Assembly: GCA_965655095.1 (NCBI GenBank) | Contig: OZ296656.1 | Location: 32,240,001-32,304,000, forward strand | Source of the DNA: Haplodiscus bocki | Lineage: Eukaryota | DNA: 64,000 nt | Reading direction: 5' to 3' | Part shown: positions 9,208 through 48,577 of the stretch, piece by piece | Position numbering within the stretch: position 1 is the stretch's first letter | Layout of the letters: the number at the start of each line of letters is the position of its first letter | Translations under genes and position numbers: made by a program | Notes under the pieces: model-generated | Told to the model about the DNA's origin: nothing | Database searches by the model: none | The model's input: the letters and a program-made list of their open reading frames with translations, nothing else

Positions 9208-9329
9208 CAAATGCGTGGCAATCTGAATGTATATCGGAATAGCGTATGCATCAGTCCCTGGCAAAAACAGTAAAAATATGAAAGCTTACATATATTTTTC
9301 AGTAAACAAATTATGTACATGTTTCAGTT

Positions 9330-14900: not shown

Positions 14901-15033
14901 AATGTGCTCACTATAAGTTATTAGTTTCACAGCAAGAGGTGCAGAAACAACCAGAAAAAATACACATTTTGGCACTTGTTTCTCACTGAAGCACGGAGGT
15001 GCAAATGCATATTAGGACACTAACACACACCAG
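11977..15033 (-). mobile_element. Decayed LTR-retroelement internal region: PBS-like site, gag remnant and long unknown ORF-X
   Basis: TGGTGTGTG PBS-like site at ~15033; knuckle-like PQFCLDCAI..FCAICQK at ~14550-14610; one stop-depleted frame from ~14250 to 11977 that links the listed ORFs 13807-14052, 13354-13548, 12691-13089 and 11977-12351. Confidence 0.5.
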
Positions 15034-18000: not shown

Positions 18001-18624
18001 TCTACATCCTATAAACAGCTGTCGGCAAAGCCTTTTTCGATGAAATCATTTTATAGTTCTTTGTAGAAACATAACTTTTAACCTGCAGGAAATTCATATT
18101 TAATTGCTTTTGTGCAACTTCAGGCTTTCAAATTTTGAAATCAAACAGTAAAATTCAACAGAATTACGAGCGATACTCTATTCATAAATGGAGCTTTTCG
18201 ACTGAGATCTTGACGCAGCAAAAGCACATGGTAGATTCTCTTAGAAAAAGGGTGGTGTCAAAATCGACAAACATCACTTTTTGCTGATTTATTAGACATT
18301 CTCAGCCAATCTTTCTCCTTATACATGAGTAGTAGTATTAAGGGTTGATTGAGTCGGGGGGAGGGGGTTGAGTGAGTAAACTTTTACGGTCAATTACTCA
18401 ACCCACCCCGAGCCAAAAATTATTAGGTAATCGCGAGCGGAGAGACAATAATGACGTAACCGACAGGTGAATCTGGTTATTTGTAGTGTAGCACAGGAGT
18501 CGTAAGTTAGTTTCAAGTAATTTTGAACGTCGACATCGAGGTGCGACAATGGCGTAACCAATAGAGTTCAAAAGGACAACTCCTTGTCCTTTTTGCTGCT
18601 GCTGTGATGGGTCTTCAATCATTT

Positions 18625-20940: not shown

Positions 20941-21013
20941 GGAGATGCATGTTCATGGGAAAAAATTCAATTTGCTGGATAAGTATTAGGACAAGTACTT
21001 TGCTTACAGAGTT

Positions 21014-24000
21014 TGTTTCCACACCAACAGATGACAAACACCAACCGCGAAATCTGACATGGTTTTCTCAGAATAATCGTCAATAAAACCAAAACAGAAA
21101 GTACTCAGCGTGCTTTCTGGAGAATTTACTTGGTTCTAAGAAAAGAAATTGAGAATCTCGCTTTCAAAATATTCAAATGACTTCATAAACAGAATGATGT
21201 ATGCGCTCCTGAAAGTTTCAGGACTGTGAGACCTGCTCCGAAAAACCTGAGCAAGGACTGATTGTATTCTTTCTTTCTTTGGTTGAAAATATTTTACTTC
21301 GGAAAACTCATTTTGTCGACCAATGTCACGACCTAACAAAGGTTTTCATTCAGAAATGCAAAAAGTTCAGCATTTTTGTCGATCTCTGCACCATGTTACT
21401 TGGCACAGAAACTCCTAGGAGAAAAAAACAAAAAGGTGTAAGTTGACGTTTTTTCTGGATATATATCTTTTTTTTCGTAAAATCCAACTTTTGCACCAGA
21501 GTGATAAATGAAAGAAATTCCACGCAGGAATACGAAATCACTTTTTGCAAAGTTTTGTGCAATGTCACGCCATTTACATTTTTCCAAGCGTGTAGTTGAA
21601 AAAAGCATGAATTTGCCAGGACTGGCTTTATAGACAGATACTTGAGCTGATGTTGATCTGAGCGTTAAAAACAGTAGTCCCTTCATTTCTTGAAGTCACA
21701 CTTCTGGTAGAGTCCTTTTCCGGAATTAGAAACTGTTGGTTCAGAGTAGTCGAAGGTAGATTACAGCAACTCTTATCACCTACTCCCCTCGTGGAACAAC
21801 AAAGGTTAAACTTTTTTTCATGTATTTCTATCAGCATCAGTGAACTTTGGAAAAATTCATTGTTTCCAACAAAAGCTTGGTGAAAAAAAATTCGTAAAAA
21901 AACCTTGTGGGATTGGAGCTAGTGTGTTTTTCTGGTTGTCGACAAAGTTCCCCTGGTACTTTGTTAACATTTAATTTTCTAAAATTTGGGACACTAGGAC
22001 GCAAATGTCGTAAATGTCCTCAGTGAGAATTTATGTATAGGATCCATACAGAAGGCAACTTTACGATCGTAAAAACTTGAGCTTCTGACGAAATGAAAAC
22101 AAAAACATGAACTATTCTGCCCCTAGGAACCTACAGACATAAACGAGAAAACAAGCAATTGCACACGGAGACTGGTTTTTGGAAACTGTTGGAACAGTTG
22201 CAGTCAATGATAGTAGTGATCGATTGATTAATCAGGGAAAAAAGGTTCCCAACTTTTAAAATTGTTAGCGAAAGAGGACATTGTGCTGCTGAGATCACTC
22301 AAAAATCGAGACAAAACATACTTTAGATAAGTTTTTGATTATTCTAATTCATCTAAAAACTGCAAAAGCAAAAATCTGATGGTTTCCACAAACGGCAGCC
22401 CTTTTCCACGATGGAAAGTCATTGGAGTTAAAGCAACTTCCAAAACATATTTCTCGTTAGTCTCAGTTTTTTCCTCGGGAAGTGGTTTTTGTTTTGTATG
22501 TAAACAAGGACAATTCACCTGGAGATAATTGGAGATGGGATTTCTCTGAGAAACGTTCGTTTGACAGGTTGGATTTTTTAAGGTGTATAGAGTGAACAAT
22601 ATTCATGATTGAAGAAATTTTCGAGCTGCAATAAGCTCGAACAAAAGCATAGATTCTCGATCGGAGCAAATTTCCAAGAGACAGGAAAAAAACACTTTGA
22701 TCAGGATTTCTGGCTTGTGAAACCTGTAATATCGAAATGGGTTTTTCATTAGAGAGATTGCTTGCCCTCAACACAAAAATCTCTGTCTTTCGTTTTCCCT
22801 CTCTCAACGTCTCTAAATGTGTTGGCTGAAGATTGCCATGCTAGTAATAACTTTCCGTTCAATTTGAAAACAACTCAATTTGTTTTCCAAGAGCAGCCGA
22901 TCATCAAATGTTTGAGAAACTTAGAACGACTTTTCAGTGTTGGACTACTTCTTTCACAATCGTAGAAATGTACAGAAACTCGGCTCAACTTTTCTAACTG
23001 CAGGCATTTTTTCGAAAAAAAACAGGCAGATAAAGTTTTCAATCCAATACTTTTTGGTGGGACACTTCTGGTTGACAATTTTTTCTTTTTCGAATGTTAT
23101 TTTTCTGAGATTGTTCATTGCACGAAGTTATTTTAATATTGGCCAACCTAAGGCGACATTTGGCAGGTTTTGTTTTATTTAGCCCAGCTAATATACTGTA
23201 GGGAATACTAACATGAACCTCTTTCTTCCTTAATATGAAGAAATCCATAAAAATTCCCTGTGTCTCCAGACTTATCTCAATCCACATTTTAGATTTCGTC
23301 AAAGACTAGCATAATAGCTTTGGAATCTTACTGAAGGTTTTTCACCTACTTTTACTATTCCGCAGCTTTTCACTTTCTCCCTTAATTGTTTCAACATCAG
23401 TTATTGAACTTGCTTTTCGGCACAAAACGAAACTTTCTTGTAACACATCTTTTGCACTTTGGGTGACCGGTTCTCGTTACAAAAAGGGAAAGCCGAAAGA
23501 GCACAGAATTTTTTTGAAGGTTGTGTTTGATTTTTCAGTGGATGTCATTACTGGCGTGTTTTAACCAAAACCTGAATGCAGCAATGTTGGCACCTAAGGG
23601 AAGTGTGGATATCTTGGGAGAAACAGAGATCAGGGTTATGCATACAAGTGTTAGCATTGCTCAGCTATACTTCAAGTTGTCAATGTTCTTTTCGCAGAGC
23701 AACAGCGGTTTTTCAAACTAGCTTGCCAAAATGAGTTTATAAATTTGAAAAAACGATACTGATCTAGTTTTTTGAAAGCAGTGGATTGCTTTTGTTTTAG
23801 TTTTACATTCCTAAATAGGTTTTGAAATGGTTGATCTTTTTCGAAGTGAGTGTGGGTGTACTAATTTGTTATAAAACACCTAAAGAATCATGTTTTTTTG
23901 AGGAGGGTGACTACCAATTCCAAATTCGCCAAAAAAGGCACAACTGCAACAATCAATTTTTTCGCCGAGTTTAGGGGAATAATTTGCTCATTTCATTTTT

Positions 24001-24060
24001 GCTTCAGGCAAAAAAATGAACCATGTGGAAACTTCAGAAAAGGTTTTGAACGAACCTGTG
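21014..24060 (+). repeat. Near-identical inverted arm, left copy (partner ~27290-30334)
   Basis: Only scattered substitutions over ~3 kb; many mirrored spurious ORFs translate identically. Confidence 0.95.
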
Positions 24061-27000
24061 TGATAAGATCTGGACATGACTTAAATTCATTTTGCCGGTT
24101 TATAAATTTGGTTTTTGAAAACAAGAGATGCCGTGTTTGCTCGGAATGATATTTTGTCTCCATTTGTCTGATGATTAATCTTGGTTGATACAGCTAACTT
24201 CAATGGTTCACTGAAAAGGCCACATTAGAGTAACCCCAATTTTTTTGTCCTAATGCTTAAAAAAGAGAAACGAAATTTCCCTAACTAAAGTTACACTCAT
24301 GAGGAAATGTCTAAGTTGCAGAAAATGACCATGTACTTTTGCATCAAACAGAGGGCTACAAAAATCATAATGAAGATTTCCGTCTGGAGGTTTGCCTGTA
24401 GGTTTAAGCTTCATTGAAGACAGTACTCAGTCTATCAATTTTCCCGATGAATTTTCCGGTGCAACCACGTTCCAAAATTTTTATTCATTCGCTCGAATGC
24501 TGATAAAAACGCTGGCACATGCTTGCTTTGTCTATATCCATTTGCAAGTCGACAGCCTCTTTCTTCAGAATTTTCCCTGATCTGTAAACGTTTTTTTGTT
24601 CCGCGGACAAATCCATCTAAGTGCAATCTCCGTTGGCCTCTTGCGGTCCGTTCAATCGAAATGAACTTCTTTTGGTTGGTTTCTCTTATCTTTATATTCC
24701 TTCTCATCGCTGACGCAGGTTTGCTTGTTTCGTTTTGTAATTTATCGCTGACGTGCTTTATTTTCCAAGAATTGAATCTGCCAAAAAAATTTCTTCTTGG
24801 CTACACAGCTTTTATCCCAAATTCCTTCGTTTTGCCTCGTTTGCCTCAATGTCTTCTTTCAAAATCACTAAAGTTTTTTGGACGGAATGCAAGTATTGGA
24901 CACTTACAAATTTGCAAAAGGGAACCGTTTGTTCATCAATTGCGTTTCCTCCAATGCTGCATTTGGCAAAAAAATTTCTGAGAAAATTTTCCGTTCGCTT
25001 TGCAATGTTTTGTTTCTTCTTCGATGTGCGCACAGCTATCCTACAGTAAACTGATCAGGTTTTATGAAGATTAGATTTCAGCACCACCTCTTGGGATTTG
25101 GAGAGCTTGCTATGGAAGTTAAGTCATTTTCGTGCTGAATTCGACAAGAATTCCAAATTCTCAAGCCCATTCCACGGGACGGTGTGTTGTTTTGCGAATC
25201 ATTCCTACCCAATTTTGTGTAGTTCTTGCTTTGTAATCAACTTAGTGCAGCTATTTTGGCAGCAGATACTTTTTTCGCTGCTGGTCAAGTGTCTGGTAGT
25301 GTACACATGAGCTTAATCGCAGTGACTCTCAGAGCAAGAAAAATTCTCATCAAAACTAAGGACAAAAAATTGTCGACAATTTCAAATGACTGCCGTAATC
25401 GAACATTTGTAGTTTCGGTGAAATTTAAAATCATTTAGATTTTTCCCTAAATTCTTTTGTTTTTCAATTATATTCACGTCTAAATGTTCCAGAGCATAAT
25501 ATTAGCCCATTTAAATTGCTCTCTTTCACTATAAAAACTGATTTCAATGGGGTTTGAAGTCAAAAAATTCGTTCCTAAAAGATATTGAGTCCTATGTTTT
25601 AGTCACTACGCCCAGGTAGTATTCAGTTCTGCTACCAAGCTGGAGTCTCCGCAAAATTTTCTGTTGGACGATGATTAGAGATGACATTCAAAATCAGACT
25701 CCCAAGTAAAATTTCACGTCTGGGGCTTCCCTCATTTATCATTTTTCACTGTTCCGAGAAAATTGTTCCTCTAATATTGTGGAACTTTGTGCCAACAAAG
25801 AACTTTAATCTCACTCTAGCTGTTGAATGACTTTTCTGAAAGCAAAAAACTCGAGCCGTAAATACACGTTTTTTTGCAAATTCGAATAATTAGGTTCCAG
25901 TTGGGACTATTGAGTGGGTAAACAAACGTTATCATAGTTCAAACGAAACGCATTTACTTCAGAGCAGTAAGGAAAACAGATAGTAGAACCAAATCCACAG
26001 TTGATCGAAAAGACCTACCCCAATGTGCTTATGTTAACAAAATCTCAAATTAATACAATCTTTAAGTTATTCTGGAAAAATGTGGGGCTCAGTTAGATGT
26101 TAAGGTAATTAAAAAACAAAAGAGTTTCGTGAAAATTCTAAACATTTCTAACTTTTATCGAAACTCCAAGTGATCGATCATCGCGGTCATTTGAACTTCT
26201 GGAAAATTTTTTTCGTCAATAATCTGATGTGCTTTTTCTTAGCTTTGAGAGTCACTCTTGTGTACAGTACGGGAGACTTGAACAGCAGCGGGGAAAGTAT
26301 TCCTTGCCAGATTATCGCCACTGATTTGATTAGCAAGCAAGAAGTACACAAAATGTGGTAGGAACAGTTTGAAGAAAATGAAGCGTGCCTCGCAATTGGT
26401 TTGAAAAAATTTAGTTCTGCTCCAGTTCAACGCGAAAATCACTTCAATTCCATTTCAAGCTCCCAAATCCCAAGAAGCTGTGATAAAAACTAATCTACAC
26501 CAAATCAAATCATTTCACTGCAGGATTGGTGGGTGTGCGCGCATAGAAGAAGAAAACAAAACATTGCCAATTGATTTGGAAACAAATGAAGAAAACTCCG
26601 TGCCGAATGCACCATTGCAGGAATTTCAATTGGTGATGAAACAGTTCCTTTTCACAAATTTGAAAGTTTTCCAAAACTTGCCTTCCATCAAGATGACTTT
26701 AGTGAACTTAAAAGAAGACATAGACACAAACGCGCCAAAATTGGAACGAAAAAACGTTTACAGATTGGGAAAGCTCTGAAAAAAGAGGCTGTCGACTTGC
26801 AAATGGATATAGACAAAGCAAGCATGTGCCAGCGTTTTTATCAGCATTCGAGCAAATGGAAAAAAATTTTGGAATATGGATGCACCGTAAAATTCATCGG
26901 GAAAACTGATAGACTGTGTACTGTCTTCAATGAAGCTTAAAATTACAGGCAAATAACCAGACGGAAATCTTTATTATGATATTTGTAGCCGTCTGTTTGA

Positions 27001-27289
27001 TGCAAATATACATGGTCATTTTCTGCAACACAGACATTTCTTCATGGGTGTGATTTTAGTTAGGGAAAATTCGTTTCTCTTTATCAAGCATTAGGACCAA
27101 AAAAAATTGGGGAAACTCTAAAATGGCCTTTTCAGTGAACCATTGAATTTACTTGCATCACCTTGAATAATGATCAGAGAAATGGAGACAAAGTATCTTT
27201 CCGAGCAAACACGGCATCACCTGTTTTCAAAAACCAACTTTATAATCCGGCAATATGAATGTAGGTCATGTCCAGATCTTACCACACAG

Positions 27290-30200
27290 GTTCGTTCAAA
27301 ACCTTTTCTGAAGTTTCCACATGGTTCATTTTTTTGCCTGAAGCAAAAATGAAATGAGCAAATTATTTCCCTAAACTCGGCGAAAAAATTGATTGTTGCA
27401 GTTGTGCCTTTTTTGGCGAATTTGGAATTGGTAGTCACCCTCCTCAAAAAAACATGATTCTTTAGGTGTTTTATAACAAATTAGTACACCCACACTCACT
27501 TCGAAAAAGATCAACCATTTCAAAACCTATTTAGGAATGTAAAACTAAAACAAAAGCAATCCACTGTTTTCAAAAAACTAGATCAGTATCGTTTTTTCAA
27601 ATTTATAAACTCCATTTTGGCAAGCTAGTTTGAAAAACCGCTGTTGCTCTGCGAAAAGAACATTGACAACTTGAAGTATAGCTGAGCAATGCTAACACTT
27701 GTATGCATAACCCTGATCTCTGTTTCTCCCAAGATATCCACACTTCCCTTAGGTGCCAACATTGCTGCATTCAGGTTTTGGTTAAAACACGCCAGTAATG
27801 ACATCCACTGAAAAATCAAACACAACCTTCAAAAAAATTCTGTGCTCTTTCGGCTTTCCCTTTTTGTAACGAGAACCGGTCACCCAAAGTGCAAAAGATG
27901 TGTTACAAGAAAGTTTCGTTTTGTGCCGAAAAGCAAGTTCAATAACTGATGTTGAAACAATTAAGGGAGAAAGTGAAAAGCTGCGGAATAGTAAAAGTAG
28001 GTGAAAACCCTTCAGTAAGATTCCAAAGCTATTATGCTAGTCTTTGACGAAATCTAAAATGTGGATTGAGATAAGTCTGGAGACACAGGGAATTTTTATG
28101 GATTTCTTCATATTAAGGAAGAAAGAGGTTCATGTTAGTATTTTCTACAGTATATTAGCTGGGCTAAATAAAACAAAACCTGCCAAATGTCGCCTTAGGT
28201 TGGCCAATATTAAAATAACTTCGTGCAATGAACAATCTCAGAAAAATAACATTCGAAAAAGAAAAAATTGTCAACCAGAAGTGTCCCACCAAAAAGTATT
28301 GGATTGAAAACTTTATCTGCCTGTTTTTTTTTCGAAAAAATGCCTGCAGTTAGAAAAGTTGAGCCGAGTTTCTGTACATTTCTACGATTGTGAAAGAAGT
28401 AGTCCAACACTGAAAAGTCGTTCTAAGTTTCTCGAACATTTGATGATCGGCTGCTCTTGGAAAACAAATTGAGTTGTTCTCAAATTGAACGGAAAGTTAT
28501 TACTAGCATGGCAATCTTCAGCCAACACATTTAGAGACGTTGAGAGAGGGAAAACGAAAGACAGAGATTTTTGTGTTGAGGGCAAGCAATCTCTCTACAT
28601 GAAAAACCCATTTCGATATTACAGGTTTCACAAGCCAGAAATCCTGATCAAAGTGTTTTTTTCCTGTCTCTTGGAAATTTGCTCCGATCGAGAATCTATG
28701 CTTTTGTTCGAGCTTATTGCAGCTCGAAAATTTCTTCAATCATGAATATTGTTCACTCTATACACCTTAAAAAATCCAACCTGTCAAACGAACGTTTCTA
28801 AGAGAAATCCCATCTCCAATTATCTCCAGGTGAATTGTCTTTGTTTACATACAAAACAACAACCACTTCCCGAGGAAAACACTGAGACTAACGAGAAAAA
28901 TGGTTTGGAAGTTGCTTTAACTCCAATGACTTTCCATCGTGGAAAAGGGCTGCCGTTTGTGGAAACCACCAGATTTTTGCTACTGCAGTTTTTAGATGAA
29001 TTAGAATAATCAAAAATTTATCTAAAGTATATTTGGTCTCAATTTTTGAGTGATCTCAGCAGCACAATGTCCTCTTTCGCTAACAATTTTAAAAGTTGGG
29101 AACCTTTTTTCCCTGATTAATCAATCGAACACTACTATCATTGACTGCAACTGTTCCAACAGTTTCCAAAAACCAGTCTCCGTGTGCAATTGTTTGTTTT
29201 CTCGTTTATGTCTGTAGGTTCCTAGGGGCAGAATAGTTCATGTTTTTGTTTTCATTTCGTCAGAAGCTCAAGTTTTTACGATCGTAAAGTTGCCTTCTGT
29301 ATGGATCCTATACATAAATTCTCACTGAGGACATTTACGACATTTGCGTCCTAGTGTCCCAAATTTTAGAAAATTAAATGTTAACAAAGTACCAGGGGAA
29401 CTTTGTCGACAACCAGAAAAACACACTAGCTCCAATCCCACAAGGTTTTTTTACGAATTTTTTTTCACCAAGCTTTTGTTGGAAACAATGAATTTTTCCA
29501 AAGTTCACTGATGCTGATAGAAATACATGAAAAAAAGTTTAACCTTTGTTGTTCCACGAGGGGAGTAGGTGATAAGAGTTGCTGTAATCTACCTTCGACT
29601 ACTCTGAACCAACAGTTTCTAATTCCGGAAAAGGACTCTACCAGAAGTGTGACTTCAAGAAATGAAGGGACTACTGTTTTTAACGCTCAGATCAACATCA
29701 GCTCAAGTATCTGTCTATAAAGCCAGTCCTGGCAAATTCATGCTTTTTTCAACTACACGCTTGGAAAAATGTAAATGGCGTGACATTGCACAAAACTTTG
29801 CAAAAAGTGATTTCGTATTCCTGCGTGGAATTTCTTTCATTTATCACTCTGGTGCAAAAGTTGGATTTTACGAAAAAAAAGATATATATCCAGAAAAAAC
29901 GTCAACTTACACCTTTTTGTTTTTTTCTCCTAGGAGTTTCTGTGCCAAGTAACATGGTGCAGAGATCGACAAAAATGCTGAACTTTTTGCATTTCTGAAT
30001 GAAAACCTTTGTTAGGTCGTGACATTGGTCGACAAAATGAGTTTTCCGAAGTAAAATATTTTCAACCAAAGAAAGAAAGAATACAATCAGTCCTTGCTCA
30101 GGTCTTTCGGAGCAGGTCTCACAGTCCTGAAACTTTCAGGAGCGCATACATCATTCTGTTTCTGAAATCATTTGAATATTTTGAAAGCGGGATTCTCAAT

Positions 30201-30334
30201 TTCTTTTCTTAGAACCAAGTAAATTCTCCAGAAAGCACGCTGAGTACTTTCTGTTTTGGTTTTATTGACGATTATTCCGAGAAAACCATGTCAGATTTCG
30301 TGGTTGGTGTTTGTCATCTGTTGGTGTGGAAACA
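27290..30334 (-). repeat. Near-identical inverted arm, right copy
   Basis: Reverse complement of 21014-24060. Confidence 0.95.
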
Positions 30335-33300
30335 GAAATTTTTACAGTTTCATTGATTTTCAGCAGTTTTGCCCAAGGCCAGCAGTAATAAGCTCTCTGG
30401 ATTACGACCTTTCCGTCGAAACTTGCAGGTTGTAACAGTTTTTCAGTTTTTGCCTCTTCGAACTTTCTCAAACGATTCGCACAGCGCTGAAAATGCTGGA
30501 AAGTTTACATGTTCTTGAAGTTTTTATTAAAGATGCTAGATATAAACACTATCCAACATTGTATAAAGTGCTGTTTGTGCAAACTTTCAGTTTTCAAATA
30601 GTTTTATCAGAATATGGTGTCCTTTATTTCCCTCCACTGAACCTCAGAGTGCCGAAAGTGCTGGAATTGTTACAGTCTCCCTGAAAGGTACAAATTTTAG
30701 TCATCCACAAGAATGAACTACATGATTCAAGGTGCAAGCTCGAACAATTTCACTTTGTGACAAATTTTAATGTTTTTTGCCGAATCCATTTCATCCATCG
30801 ATTCTCACAGTTTTAAAACTGTCTGAAAAATTGCAGTTCCTCATGGTTTTCACTAAAAGTTCCGTTTATTGCCAATAATTGGCACTTTGAAAAATTTTTC
30901 GAACAAGAATTTCAAATTACAATGTGTGTTTTAAATTTGTTTTCGTTTTTATTGTTCTCCATCAAGTCGAACAGTAGTGAAAATTATGGTTTTAAAGATT
31001 TCTAAAGCTAATCTCCGAGGAGCAGCTTCACCAGCTTATGAAACAAGATCGCCACATTTGAATTTTTAGGTGGTAACACATTTCCGTTTTTCAACATGTT
31101 GAAAGTTTTCAAACGAACCTCAAAGCGCCAAAAATGTGAGAAACTTGAAACAACTCACAACTGCCGTTGAAGGTTCTACTCATTAGCAAAAAAATGCTGT
31201 GAAACGTCTCTATACGTGAAAATTTGTAACTGTATTATAAATTCTCCTTTTGTTGCTGGCTTTGTACTTTCCGTTCAAGTTGCACAGTGCCAAAAATAAC
31301 GGACGTGTAACAGTTTTTGGAAAAAATTTTTTTAAAGAAGTTCTCTTTATCAGGAATATCAAAGACTATTAAGCAAGTTACCCATCTTCAATTTCTCAAT
31401 TTCTAATTAGAGTTTTTCTCTTCTTGCTTAATTTACTGTGTTGAAAACAACACAATTGTTACACTACGTTCGATTTGTCAGCAGAATCCAATGTTCAGCA
31501 ATACTAAGCTCTCAAACTTAGGATAGGTACGTGCAAACTGTCAAAACTTCAAAAAATATTTTCGTTCTTTCGCCTGCTTCAAAGTCTTACAATCAAGTTT
31601 CAAAGTGCCGAATTTGGCAGATTAATTCCCAGCTCCTCAGAATTGCCACCAAAAAAATCGATAATTCGGCATTTATGATTAGTTAAAAAAATTCCCTACT
31701 CTGAATTTTTCAGAATACAAGAGCTTATGCCAGTTTATGTTCATTCAGAGTTTTCCCATTCCAGTCTCACAGTGCCGAAAATGATTGAACACCCATCATA
31801 TCAGCTGCAGCAAAAAGGACAAGGAATTTTCCATGAGTTAAATTTTCAGCGATAAAAAACCTGCGATGATCTTTCGGAACGGTTTAATGGCTTAAGAAAT
31901 TTGAAGACAAAGGGTTCCGGTCTGACTTAAAAACAGGTCTGGGAATTTTCCGGCTTTTGTCGGGTTTCAATGATGTCAAGAGATTTCCCTGGAGAGTGAG
32001 TTGCTTCAATTTGGCTTTTTTTTTCATTTCGTTTTGTCCTTGTTGGTCGGGAATATCTTGTGGTAACTCCATATACGGAAACGATTCTGTAATTAAACTC
32101 CATTGGTGACGCCATTGTCGCATCTCGATGTCGACATTCAGATTCGCTTGAAAGTAACTTACGACTCCTGTGCTGCAATGCAAATAACCAGACTCACCTG
32201 TCGGTTGCGTCATTGTCGTATCTCCGCTCGCGATTACCCCATAGTGTTTGGCTCGGGTGGGTTGAGTAATTGATCGTGAATGGTTACTCACTCAACCACC
32301 CGACTAAGTCGACCCATACTATTAGTAATTATATTGGACAAACTTTTCCATACAACTTTCTGCGATTAAGAAGTCGCCAATTCCAGCCCTGCTGGAAAAA
32401 AACTCTTAAAAATCGGCAGAAAAACAAATTTATATTCGAATAATATCAATAAATATTGCACATTTCGGCAGCTGGGCTTTTGTGGTTTCGGATTCAAGGA
32501 GCAAAAGGGAAGCAAACATTGTCACCTCAAAATTATATCCAAAAAGATGGCTGCCAATTGAGACCTTGATCGAAAAAATCCGGCCGGCATGTAGAGGGAT
32601 TTTAGTTTCAACGTAGAGAAAAGTCTTTCAAAATTGCGTTCCTTCGAAATTTGAGCCTATCAGCGTTCTGATGCAATAGCGAAACTGCAGTTACTTATAT
32701 CGAATAACCTGTTGTTAATAGTGTTGTCGAATAAATTCTGGTTGGAAGGATTAGGGTTTGATCTTTTCCGAAAAGAACGAGCTTGTTTATCGGGAAAATC
32801 TCAAAGTATATGACCATTTTGACATTTTCGGCCTATCAGGGTTCCAATGCAAGAAAAGAACCCAAGGTCTTCTTCTAAAAGCGAATTCTGCAAAAATAAA
32901 ACTGACCAAGAGTAAAGAAAGCTTTTCAGAATTTTAGAGAAATTTGAGTTTGAGTACCATGAAACATTCAAAACTAATAACTAACTCCAGATCCTTCTTC
33001 TGATAGAGAACAAACAAAATCATGTTCGAGCCATTGATTTTTTCAAGGGGCTATAAGTCAAGAAACAAATCCAAGGTACAGTTTGTCAAAGAACATTCTT
33101 GTGTTCTCTTATGAACTCTTATGTAATTTTTTAATAATAAATCCGAGTTCCAATAATTTTTACCGGCGTCAAAAAAATTCTCGGTTAAATGTGAAACGCT
33201 GGGGTAAATATTCAATATACTCGAGGATTTCATTGAAATTTGAAAATTTTCTGCTAAAACTCTTCAAGAATGGACAGCCAAAGTTTCTGCTGAAATAGAG

Positions 33301-33936
33301 TTATTTCGAGAATTTGGTAATTACGTGAAGTACTCTTTGTTGTGATGAACAACTCAGGACAATTTAAATTAGGAATTCAGCTTCTGCGAGGAACTATTAG
33401 ACTACTAAAGCAACTTTCGATTTCAATAGCTATAGCTTGAAGGTTTTTTGTAGCACTAAACACAAATCGGCGAATCAGTGGAGAAAACAGTTCACGTTCT
33501 GAGTTGAAAATCCTATTTCTCTAAGTTTATTACGACACAAAAAAAACAAATTTTCAGGTTGACAGGTTGTGAAGAAAAAAATGCTTCATTGAAAGTTTAT
33601 TTAGTGAAACGACTCTTTTTGGTAATGTTTGTGGAAGCTTTGCACGGCAATTCAGACTCGAAAACAGTTTAGGATCAAAATCGGATTTGGACCGAATTTA
33701 AAAATTGGCCCAAACTCTTCGACTAGTTACCCGAAGTACTTCAAAAAAAGAAACATACGACGTTATGTTTTCAGAAAATTTTCCATTTTTGTATACAGTT
33801 CAAACATAAATTGATTAGTCGACAACAGCTTTTTTCTTATGGAGCACGCGATGTCTCAATAAACATTCCAAGCTCTGGTACTCAAAATCATTTTTCAAAG
33901 CGCAAAATCTGAGAACAATCGAATCAATTGTAGCAG

Positions 33937-36900
33937 TATCGCGTGTACAGGAATTGTAGTTAAACTACGCATCAAATATATCACGTAATATTCGCCTCAA
34001 CTAATATTGCTAGGCGGCATGTGCGGCCATGTGTCTACGTCATCGTGTAAGAAAGTCGCAGAAGCTCACACTCTTTTCAGCTTCCTAAAAATGCCAATCT
34101 AAACCGCACGGAGGAAGCTGCGTAAGTTGTACTAGCAAAAACCTGGTGAGCAAAAGAAGAATAAAAAAGAGACGAAGTAATTGGTGAATTTACGGAAATG
34201 GCAGTCAGTCTAATTAATGTGAATGTACACGAGATAAGATTATGTTTCGGAAAAGTGAGAGTATTAGAATCAGGATTTGAGCAATCCAATATATTAAAAA
34301 TTAGCGGAAAACTCAAATTTCCAAAGCATCATTTCTTTTCCATAAAATTTTTTCTACATAAAAAGGCAAGCTGCAATTCTGCATAATCTCCCCTGTTGCA
34401 AAACCATGTCCCGAATCAATTGAGGCTCGAGATTGAAATTGCTTTGGTTCCCGTTATGTCTGAGCCTGAAATATATTCTTTCCCGATAGCTGGGCGTCCT
34501 GGGTGTGACAACAACTTGGGAGTCTCTTAACGAGTTGATGAGGAGGCTCTGGAAGATTGGGCTAACGTCACATGGTTTTTGACTGGCGGCCCTGGGTTCT
34601 CGGTTGAGGAGCCAGAATCTGCGGTTTCCTTCTGTTTTTGTACAGAAAAAACTTAGAAAAGCGAATTCTTTGCTGCACCACTATGGAAAATGACCTGTTG
34701 AAAGCTCTACTAACAGGCTTCAGCAAATTGAAAAATTACCAAAAAAAACAGCGGGCGGAACGATTTAATAGTTGGCCTCCATCTACATTTCGTGTGCAGC
34801 TCGAGGGAAATTCGAAAACTGGGGGATTCTTGGAAGTAGAGTAGGTCCATGGTTTACTTCAAAAGTGGTGTGAAAGTAGTCCACACCACAAGTGCATTCT
34901 GTTGGAGTGTTTGCTCCACCAAATAGTAAGATATTGGAATTGCAAAATAACACTCTCTCATAAAAGCTTACAATTTAAATTTGAAAATCATAACAGTTCA
35001 CAATTTAATGATACAAAGCATAAAAATTAAATTCAGCCAAAGTTGGAATTATTTAATTGAATGAGAACAGACATTTTTAGTAAATTTACAAAACTTTTCC
35101 ATGGAAAATGGAACATTTACCAAAATTAAGGACTAATTTGAAGTAACGTTTTATTAGCTTTCTGGCTAGGGCGAATAATAACTAATAACGTTCGTTTTTT
35201 CTAGCTCGCGCTTTGCTTTTTGCTATATAGAACTTCCAGTTTTATTTGATGATTCAGTCATTTCAATTTAAGGTAAGACTTCAGTATCATGCCTTAGAAG
35301 CAGTCAACCTAATGAAATCTCGCAAATCCCCATTAGCCGCGAACTATAAGTTGAATTTTGTGCAAATACCGAAGGGGATATTAAATTTTTTTAGACTCTG
35401 GAAAAAAGGATCAAACGCAGTCAAACAGGTCAGACATCTTAGATGATCTTTTCGTCAACTGTGAGGCACTGACGAGGATTTTACATGCATTTTCGTTTTA
35501 GGATTATATAGCTCCTTCAGCCTTATATACACAAGTCAGTACTTGCATTACCACATCGACTGGTTGAAACTTCTTAACTATCCCTACAATTACAAACTGT
35601 GAAGAAATCTCTGGATTCCTTGGACGGGTTTAAATATTTTTGGTGCTGTCTAAAACTCAGCTAAAACTCACTGTGAGCGGCAAACTTGTGTTTTTCTCCT
35701 AGTTCCTTTTTAACTTGAACGCAGCAGGTCTTCTGCCATTCATCAAAAGAGAATATATAAAAAACGAGTAGTGAGAATAATTCTACTAGATCAAGCAAGG
35801 TAATGACTAACGTATACCAAAGTGGAGCGGAGGATTTCTTTATGTTTTCAGCGGGTTGAAGCACCTTCCGGTTATCTTCAATTGGCTAATCGGTCAGTGG
35901 AGGATAGTTTTTTTGTTGGGTTGACAGCGGGTGAAGCCCCAACGAGTAGTGCAACCAAGAAGATCCTGATGATAAATGTCAGCCCACAATACGGAAAATT
36001 TGTAGACAAAATTCGATGAGTTGAAATTGAATTTCAGCGAAGACACACTTTGGACCTGTCTTAAAAGATTTCCATGAGTTGTAGTTGAATTTTGGCTTCG
36101 ACACAATGTTGAATTGTCTTAGAGTAAATTCGATGAGTTGTAATTGAATTTCAGCTGAGGCACAACTTGGAATTGTTTTAGAATTACATCCCTGAGTTGT
36201 AGTTGAAGTTCGGCCTAGACTTGACCTTGTCTTGGAGAAACTTCGAAAATAACTGTTTGGATTTAGGCTAACCCACAACTCGGAAATATTTCAGGATAAT
36301 TTCGAAGAGTAGTAACTGATATTCGGCTAAAACACAACTTCTTGGATTTGTTTCAGAAGATTTTCAACGAGTTGTAATTGAATTTGGGCCAAGATGCGGT
36401 TTGCAAATGTCTTGCAAACATTCTGAGGTGAAGCAAATTGAGAAAAGTGATTTTAGCTTGCTTGATAAAAGTGAGAATATTCTAGAAATTTAGTAAAGGT
36501 TGAGTGTAGCAGGCTTTTACTTCAGCTAATTAAGCAAGTGAATGAGGGCGAGCTCCTCGAAATTATGACTGAGCACTGGTTTTTTATGCCCCGTTTGGTC
36601 ACGTGACCACTTAGTGTGACATAGCATGTTGGTCATGAAGCCAATAGGAAAAACCCAGTAGGCTGGGGAAATTATAATTTTGTATCTGTAAATAAAAATC
36701 TTGAAAGTTTGAAACTTCACCCGAATAAATTGAGCTGTCTATCAATTTTATCTTGCTGCCGTAATGACTTCAATTTTTACTAGCCATCTCTATTGTATAC
36801 GTTCTGTCTTCAATTTTAATCTATGTTGCTCGTCAGAGTTGGGAGGTGTATTTGTCTTTGCCCTGGATTTTTGCAACGTCCCTTCGAGTCTGTGTGGTAA

Positions 36901-37083
36901 GTAAATTTCACTTCCTTCATAATCTCGTAAATTTCGCAAGTCCAGTTCGATTAGAAAATGTACAAACTGCACTAATCACTTCAAGTATTAATCTGAGGAG
37001 TGAAGTTAGTGTTAACTTTTCGTTAAAATGAAGTCCAAAAGTTTCACGTTTTGTATGATTTGACAGTTAAAGGTATCGCGATA
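33937..37083 (-). repeat. 3' LTR (3147 bp), termini TATCGCG...CGCGATA
   Basis: Colinear with 40420-42548 apart from an ~850-bp extra block (34890-35740) and the copy number of an internal repeat. Confidence 0.75.
35960..36420 (+). repeat. ~59-bp tandem repeat inside the LTR (~7 copies; ~4 copies at 41600-41850)
   Basis: atgagttgta(a/g)ttgaatttc-like motif at about 36015, 36073, 36132, 36191, 36304 and 36366. Confidence 0.7.
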
Positions 37084-37099
37084 ACTCACCCAACTGAAA

Positions 37100-39100
37100 C
37101 GAAGAAGATGTTGAATACAGGGTTCTAGGGGAAGAGACGAAAGGACTACTGGGAGATATAAAATGCAAATTTTTCAGATATCTCAAAGTTTTGATTGAGG
37201 GAGAGCAATAACAGTTTGCAGGATAACCATCAGTCACTGGGCAGGCAACGATGTTTTTTCGAGAGTCGGTTTGTCTTGGCGGCTTTGCCAAATGATAAAG
37301 TTGCATGAGTTGAACTCAGGTTTTAGGCCATGTTGAAGTCGAAATATGAACCGTGCTCAGCTAATCTTTCTCGTTTTGGAAGCAAAATACTCTCTGCGAT
37401 GTTGGTGACTAGGGACTAAAAATGCAGTTTCAACGAGGTGTTCACACTGACTGGGACATGATGAAAGGGGGCGACCAATGGTTGGAGAAGAAAAGTGGGC
37501 GGAAGTTGTTATTGATCTTCATTACTGTTGGCTGCGAAGGATCGAAAGTTTTCAGTTGAAGGGTTTTTAACTGTGGAAGCTCAATCAAGGGGCTCCGTAG
37601 TTGAAGTGATTAGAGGGCTTGCGTGATCGTCAGGCGAAACTGGGCTAAGAAGAAATACTGCAGGAGAAGTCGGAGGTGAAAGATATACTACTTCCGGGTT
37701 AGTGGTTACAGCAAGGCTACAGAGAGTCAATGATCGTAAATCTGCGTCTAGGTTTGAAAAAATAGAAAAGATGTCGACCTTGCAAGAGCGATCTTCGATG
37801 ATCTCAGCCATGGAGTCGGGTTAATCTGGCATGGGTACTTCCAATGGAATTTTATCGCACCTGGGCAAAAACAATTTGTCATCCAGTTGCAACCAAGATG
37901 CAAATTGTAAGTTTTGTGGAACCTAACCTACATCTGGAACCAATTTGTGAGTAACCTCGGTCGACAGCATGGAGATCTAAGACCATAGTTAGCTGCGCCA
38001 CTAGATTCACATAGGAAAAGATCTCTCTATTTTCTCATAGGAATAGTTTTTGAAATTGCCTTAATATCAAACCGGCGCTCCTTGGGCAGTAAGACAGAGT
38101 AGGAGCCAGGGTTCTAAAGTAGTAGCTCCAGTACTGTGCAAACGACGTTGACATTTTTTCTAAGAGATGCTGGCGCGAAACGGGTATCTTCAGAAAACTG
38201 CCATTCATTCTAGCTTCTTCCGTAAAAACTGTAAATATGATAAAATTTATCGGCCTATTTTGAGCCGGTTGTCACGGTTAATTGAGAGTAAAATAATCAA
38301 AGAAGCTTCAAGCCAGATATAATTTTGCATATAAATGAAATAATGACTGGTAAAAGAATTTTGGGCTCTTTAATTGTTATCTGGACATTGGAACAATACG
38401 TTTTTCGAGGAGAAAAGAATCCATGAATCCATGTAAATTTAACATGAGGGTGGCCAAGAGCTCAATTTCTTGCATCATGGAAAAATTCCAGATTTGTAGG
38501 CATGATTTTTTTGTGCCCAATCAGATAGTAGAAGTGAGTTGACGTTGATAAGTGACAACTTGAGAAATATCCCAAGAAATTTTCCCATAATCCAGAAGAT
38601 CGTCCAAGTTTTAGTTTTCCCGTTTTTCCATTTCTTTGCAGACCTTCATGGTCTCAAAGAGGTTGGCAAACTCTTCTTTTCAGGATGTTATGGAGTTATG
38701 ATTCAAGTATTGCAGCGAAGAGTTCCTCAATCGACCCGATCCAGACTTTGGAGAATGTTTTCGTCGGAATTTGAAAAGCTGGATAGAGGATTGTAAAAGC
38801 TGTTCTTGTTTATGTGCTCCCATTGAAGCATTTTTGGTTTCCACTTGCAGCGAAGAGTTACTTTTGATTGGTTTTGTGGTGTGACCATGGCATAAATTTC
38901 GATCATCTCAAAGTTCGCGTAAATGATTCGAAGTAAACAACTGCAAAGATAACTTCTGTTGGCAGGGCTTTGTATCCAGGCATAAGATTGTAGGTTCGGA
39001 TAAGATGATTAGGTGGAGAATTTAACTACAGCAAATAGGAAAGTGCCATCAAGTAACATCAGGAGATATAAAAGTTTAAAAAAAGGCAATAAAAAATGAG
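37100..39100 (-). pseudogene. Decayed ORF-X of unknown function downstream of gag
   Basis: Protein-like segments across frames (TFLFAVVKF..YPNLQSYAWIQ; SSLQYL..KEEFANLF; NFSMMQEIEL; NPGSYSVL; FASWLQLDDKLFLP); no RT, RNaseH or IN motifs seen. Confidence 0.45.
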
Positions 39101-39134
39101 ATCAAGAGATAGAGAATGCTCTTTCATAGGAGTC

Positions 39135-40304
39135 AGTAGCCCAATGGAAGCGGGTTAAATAGTTCATCGTCAGACTTGCTGGTTGAGGTGAATTGTGCCC
39201 TATTAAAACTCATTCCGTTAATCCTTGAGAAATTTCTTGGTTCAGGAGGGTTACACGTGTCAGTTTCATGTTGCCAAGTGGCTTCCTGGTTAGATAGACG
39301 TCCGTTCATTCAGCTTTTTCTATAATGAAGGTCAAGAAAATGGTTCATGATACGACCGTTCTGCGGTCTATGGTTGAAGTTGCTAGTTGAATAGTTTTGT
39401 ATGGGAGTGACATTCCTTTTTGAAGACATATCAATTCGTGCTTTTCTCACTTCTTCATCTGGCATCTTTTTGCGACATCAATTTAGTATAAGTCCATTGT
39501 CATCGCAGCAATTACAGAATCGGTTAGTTTTTTTGTCTTTCTCGTTAATCGAAATGAAATTTTAGGAAAATTACTGCTACGGCATTGACGTGATGTTCTT
39601 TCAACACTGATCGAAGGTTTTTTAACTCCTGTCCAATTGTAGCCAACTCTGTCCTCGTTTGTTCTTCTAACAAATAGAAAAGTCGAGGAAAAATCTAGTT
39701 CCAAACCCTTTGGAAATATTTGGCAGCAGACATTGTTCCAAATAGCGTGTGGACGCTCCATTAGATACTCGTGAAATTTCCGTTGTAGATATCTAGGTCT
39801 AAATCTTCGCAAATTGTTGTCCATTTACCGTCGTCGACTTTGTCTTCCTTGTGCTGCTCGTTCTGCATTTTGTTGTCCATATGTGATACAGTTGATATCG
39901 TCGGGCCAACCCTTATCTTCCGTTCATTTAATGCTACGGAGAAAATCCCGATTTTCTTTTCCATCTCTTCTATTACAGTGCTCAAGTTCCAATCGATTGC
40001 GGAATTTGGGTTGTAGTTCTTCAAATCTAGTAATAAAGTCGGTTCGGATAGCTTCCCATGAGGTAACAGCTTCCACAAGGCTTCCATAGCAATCGGCAGC
40101 TGGAACTCTAAATGAAAAAGAAAAGAGTGATTTCTTGCAAAAATTGTAGTTGGCCAATTGTTCGGCGTTAGCGGGGGACATCTCCAACGGCAAGGGTATT
40201 TTTCTTCCAGTTAATTGTACAATGGATTCAGCATCCTGATCAGGGTCAGTGTCAGAGAACTTTTCCACGGCCAGGTCGGGATACGCAAGATGAGCTGCAG
40301 CCAA
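39135..40304 (-). pseudogene. Gypsy-type gag (capsid-like region + Cys/His knuckle), frameshifted
   Basis: AAAHLAYPDLAVEKFSDTDPDQDAES..SWEAIRTDFITRF..RPRYLQRK.HEYLMERP.A.WN..RFCNCCDDNG..CRKK. Confidence 0.75.
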
Positions 40305-40398
40305 TGTGATATATTTTTTACAAAACATCAACTATACAAAACTAACTAGGGCACAAACTGCACAAATTACAGAAAGAATCAATGTTGCTCACAAGTGT

Positions 40399-40416
40399 GC
40401 CGCACTGCTCGCACCA
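40399..40416 (-). promoter_or_regulatory. tRNA primer-binding site
   Basis: TGGTGCGAGCAGTGCGG begins 3 nt inside the LTR boundary, ~100 bp upstream of gag. Confidence 0.65.
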
Positions 40417-40419
40417 GTT

Positions 40420-42548
40420 GGTCGAGCGTACAGTGGGTGAAGTTAAACTACCAATCAGATATAGTCACTATTGTTCATCCTAAATAAATGCTGTTTGGCG
40501 GAGTGTGAGGCCTTGCATCTGTATTACCGTGTAGGAAAGTCTAAGAAGCTCTCATTGTTTTAAGTTTCCTAAATTTGCCCTGCTAAACGAAGCTGCGTAA
40601 GTTCTACTAGCGGGGACTTGGTAAACAAAGAAAGAAGACAAAAGAAGATGAATTGCTTGGTGAATATGCGGAAAAGGCAGTCGGTATAAAAAATGTAAAT
40701 ATGCACCAGATAAGATGAATTATCGGAAGAGTGAGATTAATAGAATCAAAATTTGAGCAATTTAAATTCTTAAAATCTAGTAGAAAACTCAAAGTTCCAA
40801 AGCCTCCGTTTTCTTCAAAATTTATTCTTTTTAAAAAGGCAAACCGCTTTCTACACAATCTCCTCTGTTGCAAGACCCGGTTCCGACTCAAATGAGGATC
40901 GGGACTGAAGTTCTTTCAGTTCTCGATATGCGTGAACTTGAATTGTCTCCTCCCCTTTAGCTGGGTATCCTGGGTCTGAAAACTTCTTGGGACTCTTTTA
41001 CCGCGTTGATGTGGAGGCTCTGGAGGATTGAGCTAACTTCACGAAAATTTATAAATGACCGTCTTGGGTTTTTGATTGAAGATCCCGAAAATTCATGAAC
41101 TTTGTGCAATTTTCACATAATTATGTACGGTAATATTTGGGAAAAAAACGAATTCTACGCTACATCACTTTGAAAAAATAGAAGTTAAAAGCTCTAAAAC
41201 CCGGCTTCTGCAAGTTGACAAAGTACCAAGGAACTCAGTGTGTGAAACGATTTGATAGTTGGCCTCCTGCGACACTTTGAGTCCAGCTTCAGGAACTTGT
41301 GGAATCCGGAAGATTCTTGGCCAGTAGATTAGGCCCTGTGTCCACTTCGTCGTCCACATCAAAAGAGAATATATAATAAATGAGTAGTGAGAATAATTCT
41401 ACTAGATCAAGCAAGGTAATGACTAACGTATGCCAAAGTGGAGCGGAGGATTTCTTTATGTTTTCAGCGGGTTGAAGCACCTTCCGGTTATCTTCAATTG
41501 GCTAATCGGTCAGTGGAGGATAGTTTTTTTTGTTGGGTTGACAGCGGGTGAAGCCCTAACGAGTAGTGCAACCAGGATGATCCTGATGTTAAATGTCAGC
41601 ACACAATACGGAAATATCGTGGAAAAAATTCGATGAGTTTTAATTGAATTTCACTTTGGACCTGTCTTAAATTATTTTCATGAGTTGTAGTTGAATTTCG
41701 GCTACGAAAAAAAGTGGAATTGTTTTGAACAATTTTGAAGAGCAGTAACTGAATTTCGGCTAAGACACATCTTGCAATTGTCTCAGAATATTTTCGAACA
41801 GAAGTGATTGAATTTTGGCTGAGACTCAATTTGCAAAAGGCTTGGAAAAAATTTGAGGTTTGGGCAGTTGAGAAAAAAGAAATTGCTTTGCTTCAAAAAG
41901 TGAGATTATTCAGGAACTTAAGTGAAGGCTGAGCGTAGAAGAGTTTCGCTTCGGGTAATCAAGCGAGTGAATGAGAGCGAGCTCCTCAAAATTCTGACTG
42001 AGCACTGATTGCTTATGCCTCGTTTGGTCACGTGACCACTTCATGTGACCTGGCATATTGGTCATGTAGCCAAAAGGAAAAACCCACTAGGTTGCGGGAA
42101 TTAGAATTTTGTTTCTTTAAAAAAAATGTTGGAAGTTTGAAACTTTAACCGAATAAATCGAGCTCTCTATCAATTTTATCTTGCTGCCGTAATGACGGTC
42201 ACTATTTACCAGTCAACTTTCTTGTATCCATTCTGTCGTCAATTTTGTACTTTATTGCACGTCAGACTTGGAATCGTCTTTGTCTTTGCCCTGGGTTGTT
42301 GCAGTTGCAACGTCCCTTCCAGTCTGCGTGGTAAGTAAAATTCAACTCCTTCATAATCTCCTAATTTTCGCAAGTCAATTTCGAATAAAAAATGAACAAA
42401 CTGCACTAATCGCTTCAGGTATTTATCTGAAGAATGTTATTTCGCGAGTTTTTCTTTTAACGTCAAAAATTCATGAAGTTAGTTTTAACTTTTCGTTAAA
42501 ATGAAGTCCATAGTTTTGTAAGGTTTGAGCGTTAGCTCTGACACGATA
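40420..42548 (-). repeat. 5' LTR (~2130 bp)
   Basis: Diverged direct repeat of 33937-37083; outer end cacgata (TATCGTG on the minus strand). Confidence 0.75.
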
Positions 42549-43349
42549 GCGGAAGCTTCTGCTCTTATGTAAAGTTGTTTGGCGAGCGAATTTGGCATTG
42601 CCAAAAAAGGCATTGCGAGATTTGGTCTCAATTGTAAATTACCTAAGGCTGCACGTGTTGCTAGATTGTTTTCTCCGGTTTATGAAAAGGTGTACTTTTT
42701 CTGAATTTCTTCTGCGGGATAAAAAATGGTTCGAAATTGCAAGAGGGGCATCATAATGGGGGCGGTTGCTATCTTTCTTAGTTCTTAACGCCTTTTCGCG
42801 AAATAGAAAAATGAAAAACAGCTTTTTACGGAATTGGGAGCATCAGTGAATTGTCAAAATTTTGAATGTTAGCATATCCGAGATCCTGTGTATTAAACAT
42901 TGTATTTTGGTTGGTATTGGCTCATACTTTTGATTGGCGCTAAAAACTTATGACGAGACTAAGTCATCAGAGTTCTACTTAAAGCTGCTGTTTTCTCCTA
43001 GTTGAAGGTAATTGGAGGAAATTAAAACTTTGAGTACTTTTTCATCGGTCCGAATCTGTCTATGGTTCGAATTTGGTATGTTTCCAAATTGTCGCATTAC
43101 CGAAAAATTGGTACACTGTCCTATTGAGAAGAAATCGTTGATAGTGGAAGATCACATTTTTTTCATTTCGTTTCGAAGTAAAAACTAAGTTGCAGCGGGA
43201 GAACAATTTTTTAGACTATTATTTTAGAAATATTTTTTGACAAACTCGGAAAAATTTGGTGAAGTAAAAAAAACTTTTTAGCATGCAATTATATCTTATC
43301 GTGCATTTGGCAGATTTCATGAAAAGAAACAACGTTTAATGGTGTCCTT

Positions 43350-48388: not shown

Positions 48389-48502
48389 TGGTTAATATTG
48401 TCTTGTTGGCAAATACACTTGGTAAAGTTGGTAATAACATAATAATAGCTCATGGTTCTTCATGCATGAGCATTATGATAATTTTTCAAAAGGGTTTGTT
48501 AC

Positions 48503-48577
48503 TCAAACTTGATTATTCAAACTTGATTATTCAAACTTGATTATTCAAACTTGATTATTCAAACTTGATTATTCAAA
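48503..48577 (+). repeat. Perfect 14-bp tandem repeat (tcaaacttgattat), ~5.4 copies
   Basis: Directly visible. Confidence 0.95.

Follow-up and report, generated by a model that had tools for sequence, protein, structure and literature searches.

A decayed giant-LTR retrotransposon of Haplodiscus bocki with a short-tail Gypsy-type gag and no recognisable reverse transcriptase or integrase

The window analysed here, a stretch of 64,000 nt (64 kb) from a contig of Haplodiscus bocki, carries on its minus strand an LTR element of 8,612 nt (33937-42548), whose features are collected in Table 1. Two direct repeats (E down to 0) enclose an internal region of 3,336 nt and account for 61% of the element, in agreement with the original prediction of giant LTRs covering more than half of it and of an interior of about 3.3 kb. 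Both LTR starts are in register, and the primer-binding site (PBS), gag and a purine-rich tract follow one another between the LTRs in the expected order and orientation. At the polypurine position before the 3' LTR, this tract is a weak purine-rich (G-rich) 11-mer with several T. The outer ends of the element read TATCG..CGATA rather than TG..CA, and the LTR of the related locus L005 ends in CGACA. An alignment of LTR end and PBS with L005 outscored 1000 of 1000 shuffles; a relative sharing both the PBS and the LTR terminus is thereby identified. Misassembly of the element was ruled out, as a single contig of run X1 matches 36889-39867 without any difference and at the depth of a single copy. 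No second copy or pol relic was found elsewhere in the window, and no tRNA or other known RNA inside the element (no Rfam match). No RNA data set was listed as containing the element, a result that has no bearing on its expression.

Table 1. Features of the LTR element and its left flank (positions within the window).
Feature	Position	Strand	Description
5' LTR	40420..42548	-	2,129 nt; TATCG start (minus strand); contains 59-nt tandem array
Primer-binding site	40400..40416	-	3-nt spacer from LTR; TGG-starting 17-mer, 15/17 nt identical to the L005 PBS
Decayed gag, short-tail type	39135..40304	-	capsid; broken CCHC knuckle near 39520
Post-gag DNA, proximal ('ORF-X')	37914..39134	-	high-copy; common to short-tail relatives; fewer sense-strand stops than expected; frame changes at several points
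Distal internal DNA	37084..37913	-	low-copy; no coding signal; ends at purine-rich 11-mer beside 3' LTR
3' LTR	33937..37083	-	3,147 nt; TATCG start, CGATA end (minus strand)
59-nt tandem array, 3' LTR	35988..36385	.	more units than the 5' LTR array (41601-41856)
892-nt block, 3' LTR only	34849..35740	.	4-6x single-copy depth in run X1; adjoins 97%-identical block
Left flank GCAG	33933..33936	+	possible 4-bp target-site duplication with 42549-42552 (GCGG); 3/4 match, weak

The element copy is old and dead: its LTRs are 80% alike and mosaic, and its gag is broken. LTR identity amounts to 80.3% across 2,026 aligned bases and is very uneven, passing from 73% to 97% over 235 nt and then to about 83%; the contrast between the first two values has a binomial p of 2e-14. 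The extra length of the left LTR consists partly of the 892-nt block and about three 59-nt units that the right LTR lacks. Within the LTRs, no frame showed the consistent drop in pN/pS sought as a mark of coding sequence. The uneven identity, the 892-nt difference and flanks that match at only 3 of 4 positions would suit a recombinant rather than one insertion, with LTRs drawn from different copies or subfamilies and a layout that says little about the family. Such an origin is very improbable in our judgement, given the well-ordered interior and the registered LTR starts, and the mosaic is explained equally well by gene conversion or template switching.

The gag of the window copy has suffered two frame changes (near 39670 and 39535) and four stops (39926, 39827, 39480 and 39312). 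It has 154 relatives (best E 5e-72), of which the intact P0010 and P0073 score above the Pfam threshold for PF03732, and it is 52-65% identical to P0010; the gag and PBS of the original prediction are thus both present. Judged from gag alone, the element is Ty3/Gypsy-type. It falls in a large unnamed Gypsy-type family with two capsid forms, termed long-tail and short-tail. Among the short-tail gags, 37 of 39 lie in one clade, which is separate, high-copy and made up mostly of full-length gags, and whose proteins may come from a host other than that of the window. One short-tail cluster alone has 277 members, with lengths of 385-455 aa in 11 of the 15 members listed. Short- and long-tail gags stop at homologous points (34% identity across the final 41 aa, E 0.01); at the DNA level, an alignment of the two types across the gag stop did not stand out from shuffled sequence (333 of 1000). 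The two forms also occur in mosaic. Ahead of the knuckle, P0078 shares 93% identity with the long-tail P0086, and behind it P0078 has the short tail; in the window gag, codons 46-113, which resemble one long-tail lineage, are long-type at 8/9 diagnostic sites and are followed by 7/7 short-type sites (25 of 2000 permutations). Five metagenome loci, whose best matches are long-tail gags, break off inside gag or shortly behind it, or are interrupted, and no pol of the element's gag family was seen anywhere in the analysis. Sister-copy DNA, sought in viral contigs (P0010, P0073, P0353, PBS pattern) and in genome contigs, gave no match. Small additional ORFs lie upstream of gag in the relatives L004, L005, P0114 and P0353.

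In Gypsy elements, pol begins directly behind gag. The post-gag DNA of the window element opens where, by homology, long-tail gags have their stop, and therefore sits in the pol slot. Because it is high-copy and common to short-tail relatives, it is also family DNA: in two runs, whose depth is not equal to copy number, it reaches 3,054-10,334 up to about 37,900, compared with 1,767-15,631 in gag and about 28 for single copy. Depth peaks at 38089 (84,110 and 99,288 in the two runs), beside a stretch (about 38040-37960) that we take to resemble a Gypsy protease start. The stretch towards the 3' LTR (37212-37562) comes close to being unique, at 2-3x single-copy depth in the runs, and for this reason a pol-less layout may not extend to the family.

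The post-gag DNA had been described as decayed protein-like sequence, to which the tests for coding lend weak support. In favour is a deficit of sense-strand stops in 37914-39159 (49 versus 67.5 +/- 4.7 expected, z -3.9), which is restricted to the high-copy proximal part and absent from the distal part. Against it, one of three flank controls reached z -3.7, and the remaining measures lie near chance: 6 and 12 of 100 shuffles attained the frame-path score, a stop-free run as long as the longest one here (96 codons) is expected by chance (211 of 500 shuffles), and the codon model peaked at 6.4 bits versus a 95% null of 5.5. An antisense ORF-X, prompted by a plus-strand G skew, was rejected, the plus strand having no stop deficit (z 0.0 to 0.5).

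A motif scan in six frames of 37084-39159 found no protease, reverse transcriptase (RT), RNase H or integrase, which upholds the earlier description of about 2 kb behind gag without the last three. Pfam yielded no pol or env match with 12 whole frames and 30 pieces, and searches of the post-gag DNA in NCBIfam and PDB gave no match, Pfam and PDB matches above E 0.01 being treated as chance. A six-frame profile returned 0 matches against 1.84 billion representatives, as did two single-frame protein searches, which covered only the gag-tail frame (minus) and thus possibly the wrong one. No env, GDSL or DEDDy match was obtained in this low-power search, and furin-type motifs number 1 versus 2.2 expected. 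As a control, the six-frame search recovered 32-35 of 35 gags; under a harsher control with a frameshift every 140 nt, it recovered 3, 1 and 0 of 8 at 20, 25 and 30% change. Owing to this low power on so frameshifted a copy, the blanks carry little weight.

The original prediction of a novel second protein was not supported, given the start of the DNA at the homologue of the long-tail gag stop and the failure of three protein searches, of low power with a frameshifted query, to reveal an intact sister ORF. The idea can be recast as a non-autonomous family with its own capsid and a real non-pol second protein, accessory or env-like, that is intact in younger copies. Here the short-tail relative P0353, one case among 381 proteins, is of interest. 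It continues for 208 stop-free codons past the gag stop, a run whose probability is about 1e-5 given a background stop rate of 0.054, and its tail maps to the post-gag DNA of the window: five of nine overlapping pieces fall within 40 nt of the expected place, two further pieces map at a constant offset of 110 nt, and in one of six frames the whole tail scored 54, where the best shuffle reached 52. This extension would fit a second protein, as would the stop deficit, the small ORFs upstream of gag and the extra ORFs common in rotifer LTR elements (PMC5408684). Scored as an in-frame protein, however, the P0353 tail lies below background (-11 and -15 bits, where gag as a control gave +34 and +52), and it has no Pfam, NCBIfam or Atlas match (Atlas best 0.75). 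The hydrophobic start of the tail corresponds to T-rich DNA. Nor was an intact ORF-X cluster seen, despite the 277-member short-tail gag cluster, and we regard a second protein as unlikely.

The same tail bears on another reading, namely a family, similar to TR-GAG elements but large, that codes for gag only and whose conserved 3' region is non-coding, the post-gag DNA either never having coded in this lineage or being kept as cis-acting RNA. The tail fits non-coding background best in a frame-likelihood test that discriminated nothing; as off-frame coding DNA it scored -5 to -12 bits, where true off-frame controls mostly gave +12 to +35 (mixed codon table). Among 11 short-tail read-throughs, ten run into a stop within 15-61 codons. 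The chance-level codon model and longest open run and the missing sister ORF point the same way. The sense-strand stop deficit and the open tail of P0353 argue against it, the six-frame recovery of frameshifted controls tempers the missing ORF, and a cis-acting RNA finds no Rfam match. We consider a gag-only family rather unlikely.

The explanation that we favour, held with middling confidence, is a dead Ty3/Gypsy-type copy without RT, RNase H and integrase in which the post-gag DNA is most likely decayed 5' pol. The 1.2 kb behind gag would represent the 5' part of pol, from its N-terminal region to about the protease, and the remaining 0.8 kb would be 3' internal DNA. The window copy has three frame changes relative to P0353 in about 510 nt of post-gag DNA, compared with two in 1,170 nt of gag, as expected if the former decayed while gag was kept. 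Counting against this reading are the failure of every search to match the post-gag DNA to pol, the off-frame scores of the P0353 tail, and three long-tail read-throughs that part company with the eleven of short-tail type some four codons on. By established LTR biology, RNA driven from the 5' LTR would give Gag; this RNA may have entered particles together with RNA of a relative that has pol, whose enzymes would have copied it from a primer at the shared PBS and integrated the product. If templates were switched within such mixed particles, the mosaic gag and LTRs could result, and the long-tail elements would presumably carry pol. Whether RT, RNase H and integrase were lost before insertion or by deletion in one or a few copies is about evenly balanced. 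The original proposal of an animal non-autonomous Gypsy derivative with its own capsid is accordingly retained for this copy, which has gag and none of the three enzymes, but not for a pol-less layout as a family trait. A more ambitious version, which we judge quite improbable, is a high-copy animal Gypsy lineage long devoid of pol, with its own capsid clade under selection. It would encode a real non-pol protein directly after gag, perhaps reached by reading through the stop, as hinted by P0353, and would trade gag bodies with autonomous partners, the zinc knuckle being the switch point.

Closely comparable systems are found in plants. PMC9744471 describes wheat RLG_Sabrina_SA and RLG_WHAM as semi-autonomous GAG or GAG-protease Gypsy families, and PMC13570524, which also names LARDs, reports 28 GAG/PROT-only families in sugar beet. 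Such families share with the window element a size of about 8 kb, the retention of LTRs, PBS and gag with perhaps a protease trace, the lack of RT and integrase, high copy number and sequence exchange with partners; the window element differs in its animal host, in that the copy is dead and its protease putative, and in that the absence of RT and integrase is known from this copy. TR-GAG elements (PMC4350172) are non-autonomous plant LTR elements of <4 kb with a gag ORF only; the window element is likewise non-autonomous with gag, but has 8.6 kb, 2 kb behind gag and a possible coding relic. Non-autonomous RLC_Angela (PMC9744471) has internal coding DNA degenerate across the subfamily, with frameshifts and stops, as proposed here for the post-gag DNA, but it is a Copia element and its entire coding sequence, including gag, is degenerate. 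In animals, bdelloid TelKA2n and ORF3-bearing Juno and Vesta (PMC5408684) lack most of pol and keep a further ORF, and so set an animal precedent for the layout originally proposed; TelKA2n has a recognisable env and no gag C-terminus, whereas the low-power searches of the window element gave no env, GDSL or DEDDy match.

If the short-tail clade were pol-less throughout, it would correspond in animals to the semi-autonomous GAG(-protease) families of plants. Its intact capsid genes number in the hundreds and its exchange with partners is visible, and it could then serve to study how such partnerships persist. If pol was lost in the window copy only, the element would be nothing out of the ordinary for a decayed retrotransposon; evidence is thin for a new second protein, which would be the more remarkable finding. 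LARDs are large elements with long LTRs, no enzymes and no coding capacity. The window element resembles them in being large, long in its LTRs and enzyme-free, and differs from them in having a gag.

Self-comparison of the window delimits two direct repeats, at 33937–37083 (3,147 nt) and 40420–42548 (2,129 nt), which make up 61% of an 8,612-nt element and enclose 3,336 nt of internal DNA; the original prediction of an internal region of ~3.3 kb, with LTRs exceeding half of the element, is thus borne out. Since a TGG-starting primer site (PBS) lies 3 bases past the right repeat and a weak, purine-rich 11-mer just ahead of the left one, the element is placed on the minus strand. The LTR starts with TATCG in both repeats, in register, and the outer end of the element reads CGATA. 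Three of the four LTR ends (33937, 37083, 42548) carry TATCG/CGATA instead of TG/CA, which may be either a family trait or decay; the LTR end of L005, a metagenome locus with a related element, is CGACA. The flanks, GCAG and GCGG, are alike at three of four bases. Given that one contig of sequencing run X1, possibly the window's own source, spans 36889–39867 with no differences at depth 27, and that further X1 contigs cover most of the remaining element, this layout is not an assembly error.

The LTR pair is 80.3% identical over 2,026 aligned bases (K2P 0.23), yet unevenly so: identity is 73% over 898 nt, a 235-nt block has only 7 differences (binomial p 2e-14), and ~83% is found elsewhere. 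The left LTR additionally contains 892 nt and extra 59-nt units absent from the right one. No frame of the LTRs gave a consistent coding signal. A single clock does not fit this uneven divergence, and conversion or recombination is needed; a composite of two insertions is very improbable.

One frame of 39735–40331 matches 154 proteins (350–2,000 aa; best E 5e-72). The best 120 of these were analysed as gag relatives; among the matches listed, all have at most 572 aa and belong to one source class. Intact relatives exceed the PF03732 cut-off. They align to 40304–39135, where the window gag changes frame near 39670 and 39535 and contains four stops, so this copy is dead: the element is a real but decayed LTR element. 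The cluster of one relative, P0010, has 277 members, with full length in 11 of the 15 listed, and the host species of these proteins may differ from that of the window. Another, P0062, is a nested or chimeric copy: its first 186 aa match this gag, and PF03564, a gag-like domain of another family, lies in the rest.

Beyond the zinc knuckle, 117 of the 120 listed relatives can be divided into 39 short-tail gags (the window type), 57 long-tail gags and 21 left unassigned. A quick tree built from 115 gag bodies groups 37 of these 39 short-tail gags in one clade (SH-aLRT 100) and places P0078 and P0108 within a long-tail clade (support 99). P0078 is 93% identical to the long-tail P0086 up to the knuckle and divergent beyond it, and alignment resumes over their last 41 residues (34%, E 0.01), which indicates that the two types have homologous stop positions; DNA alignment of this gag-stop junction alone gave no significance. 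The window gag is long-type at 8 of 9 diagnostic sites in codons 46–113 and then short-type at 7 of 7 (25 of 2000 permutations), a patch that may reflect exchange with a long-tail lineage or, alternatively, retained ancestral residues. Three points merit further attention: the distinct clade of short-tail capsids, its exchange of sequence with long-tail lineages, and the relative P0353.

Depth over gag and the DNA behind it was summed over contigs of X1 and X4, two of the four runs listed and both from one study, at 80% likeness, a measure distinct from copy number, with single-copy DNA at ~28. It ranges from 1,767 to 15,631 over the gag bins, is 1,179 and 2,215 at the gag end and 3,054–10,334 over 37914–38966, and falls distally to 489 and 569 (37563–37913) and then to 54 and 93 (37212–37562); the LTR middles are similar to this distal DNA (107–478). 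The gag-like depth marks the proximal 1.2 kb as family DNA, and the low depth marks the distal part, like the LTR middles, as nearly private or fast-evolving. The deepest of the internal positions listed, 38089 (84,110 and 99,288), adjoins ~38040–37960 (−), which we take to resemble the N-terminus of a Gypsy aspartic protease, although a motif scan did not find the catalytic pattern there.

The description of this DNA as protein-like is weakly supported: the sense strand of 37914–39159 has a stop deficit (z −3.9), but one of three flank controls matches it, and the other tests of coding potential gave chance-level or near-chance results. The control 58000–60000 (−), picked as non-coding, itself gave z −3.7 and a path score that, at one setting, none of 100 shuffles reached, and is possibly another decayed ORF. 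A non-coding 3' region is, on balance, a rather unlikely account of the post-gag DNA. Eleven short-tail relatives read through past the gag stop from the same start; ten end within 15–61 codons, and P0353 runs for 208. When its tail was cut into nine overlapping pieces, five lay at most 40 nt from the position expected under colinearity, two were shifted by a constant 110 nt, and two did not fit. The window has three frame changes over the ~510 nt aligned to this tail, and a 15-nt repeat with copies 135 nt apart. Pfam, NCBIfam and Atlas gave no match to the tail, and neither as an in-frame protein nor as an off-frame view does it beat background, a likelihood result that counts against both coding readings. 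A real novel second protein behind gag is considered unlikely.

The post-gag DNA had no match in Pfam (12 frames; 30 pieces), NCBIfam, PDB or Rfam, in two single-frame protein searches, or when a six-frame profile was run against 1.84 billion representatives. The profile method recovers 32–35 of 35 gag relatives of at least 150 aa, and 3, 1 and 0 of 8 controls at 20, 25 and 30% change with a frameshift every 140 nt, so its blank is weak. The predicted lack of reverse transcriptase, RNase H and integrase in the ~2 kb behind gag agrees with the blank Pfam, NCBIfam, PDB and profile results, whose power on frameshifted DNA is low. The best fit to the position of this DNA, its copy depth, the stop deficit and the denser frameshifts is a decayed 5' portion of pol that remained once RT, RNase H and integrase were lost, a reading to which we give an even chance.

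If the enzymes were lost before insertion, the element would have moved in trans with its own Gag, a shared PBS and borrowed enzymes, and template switching could then have produced mosaics; if they were lost only afterwards, this would be a simple deletion. Both orders of events are compatible with the near-private distal DNA. L005 is a candidate for the anticipated partner, with an LTR end and PBS that align with those of the window element (15 of 17 PBS bases; 0 of 1000 shuffles equal), but none of the five metagenome loci, whose best matches are long-tail gags, reaches pol, and the autonomy of long-tail elements is therefore an assumption. In L005 the PBS and gag are separated by 1,097 nt, which contain small additional ORFs, versus 112 nt in the window. 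Such ORFs of ~110–120 aa, one to three in tandem and mutually similar, lie between PBS and gag in L004 (1–1090) and L005 (~850–1290) and are absent from the window. Similar ones are carried by P0114, P0172, P0191, P0216 and P0353, in some cases fused to gag; the extra-ORF part of P0114 or P0353 has no Pfam match.

LARDs are defined by having no coding capacity, which sets the window element apart from them. It also exceeds the size limit in the consulted part of the TR-GAG description (PMC4350172). Its proposed working would resemble that of plant GAG or GAG-protease semi-autonomous families, as far as excerpts of PMC9744471 and PMC13570524 describe them. Animal precedents are the rotifer TelKA2n, which according to an excerpt of PMC5408684 is missing most of pol but retains env, and a mosquito element with only gag, known from its title in the reference list of PMC3286476. 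The sections seen of PMC10886601, PMC5443660 and PMC9911081 contain nothing on the window's Gypsy family, and no description was found in the literature, although repeat libraries and supplements may contain one.

The LDL-receptor class A repeats of a gene piece at 87–563 suggest that the host is an animal. Among the other features of the window, two ORF pieces within the palindrome have no Pfam match. Its arms are 97.5% complementary (99% over 1,736 nt), dropping to 70–83% outward and inward, and it is either an ancient inverted duplication that has undergone conversion or else a giant foldback element.

Other features of the window, in window coordinates
Feature	Position	Strand	Details
Host gene piece, three LDL-receptor class A repeats	87–563	−	E 5e-20
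107-nt inverted repeat pair	2373–3094		508 nt apart
Decayed LINE-like element	3706–8358	+	RT PF00078 E 1.5e-25; ORF1-like pieces; endonuclease-like piece by eye
Three overlapping open frames, 144–165 codons	11977–13143	−	No Pfam match; G+C-richer, strand-skewed stretch
14-kb palindrome	18330–32327		Arms 21014–24602 and 26743–30334
14-nt tandem array	48499–48577		5.6 copies
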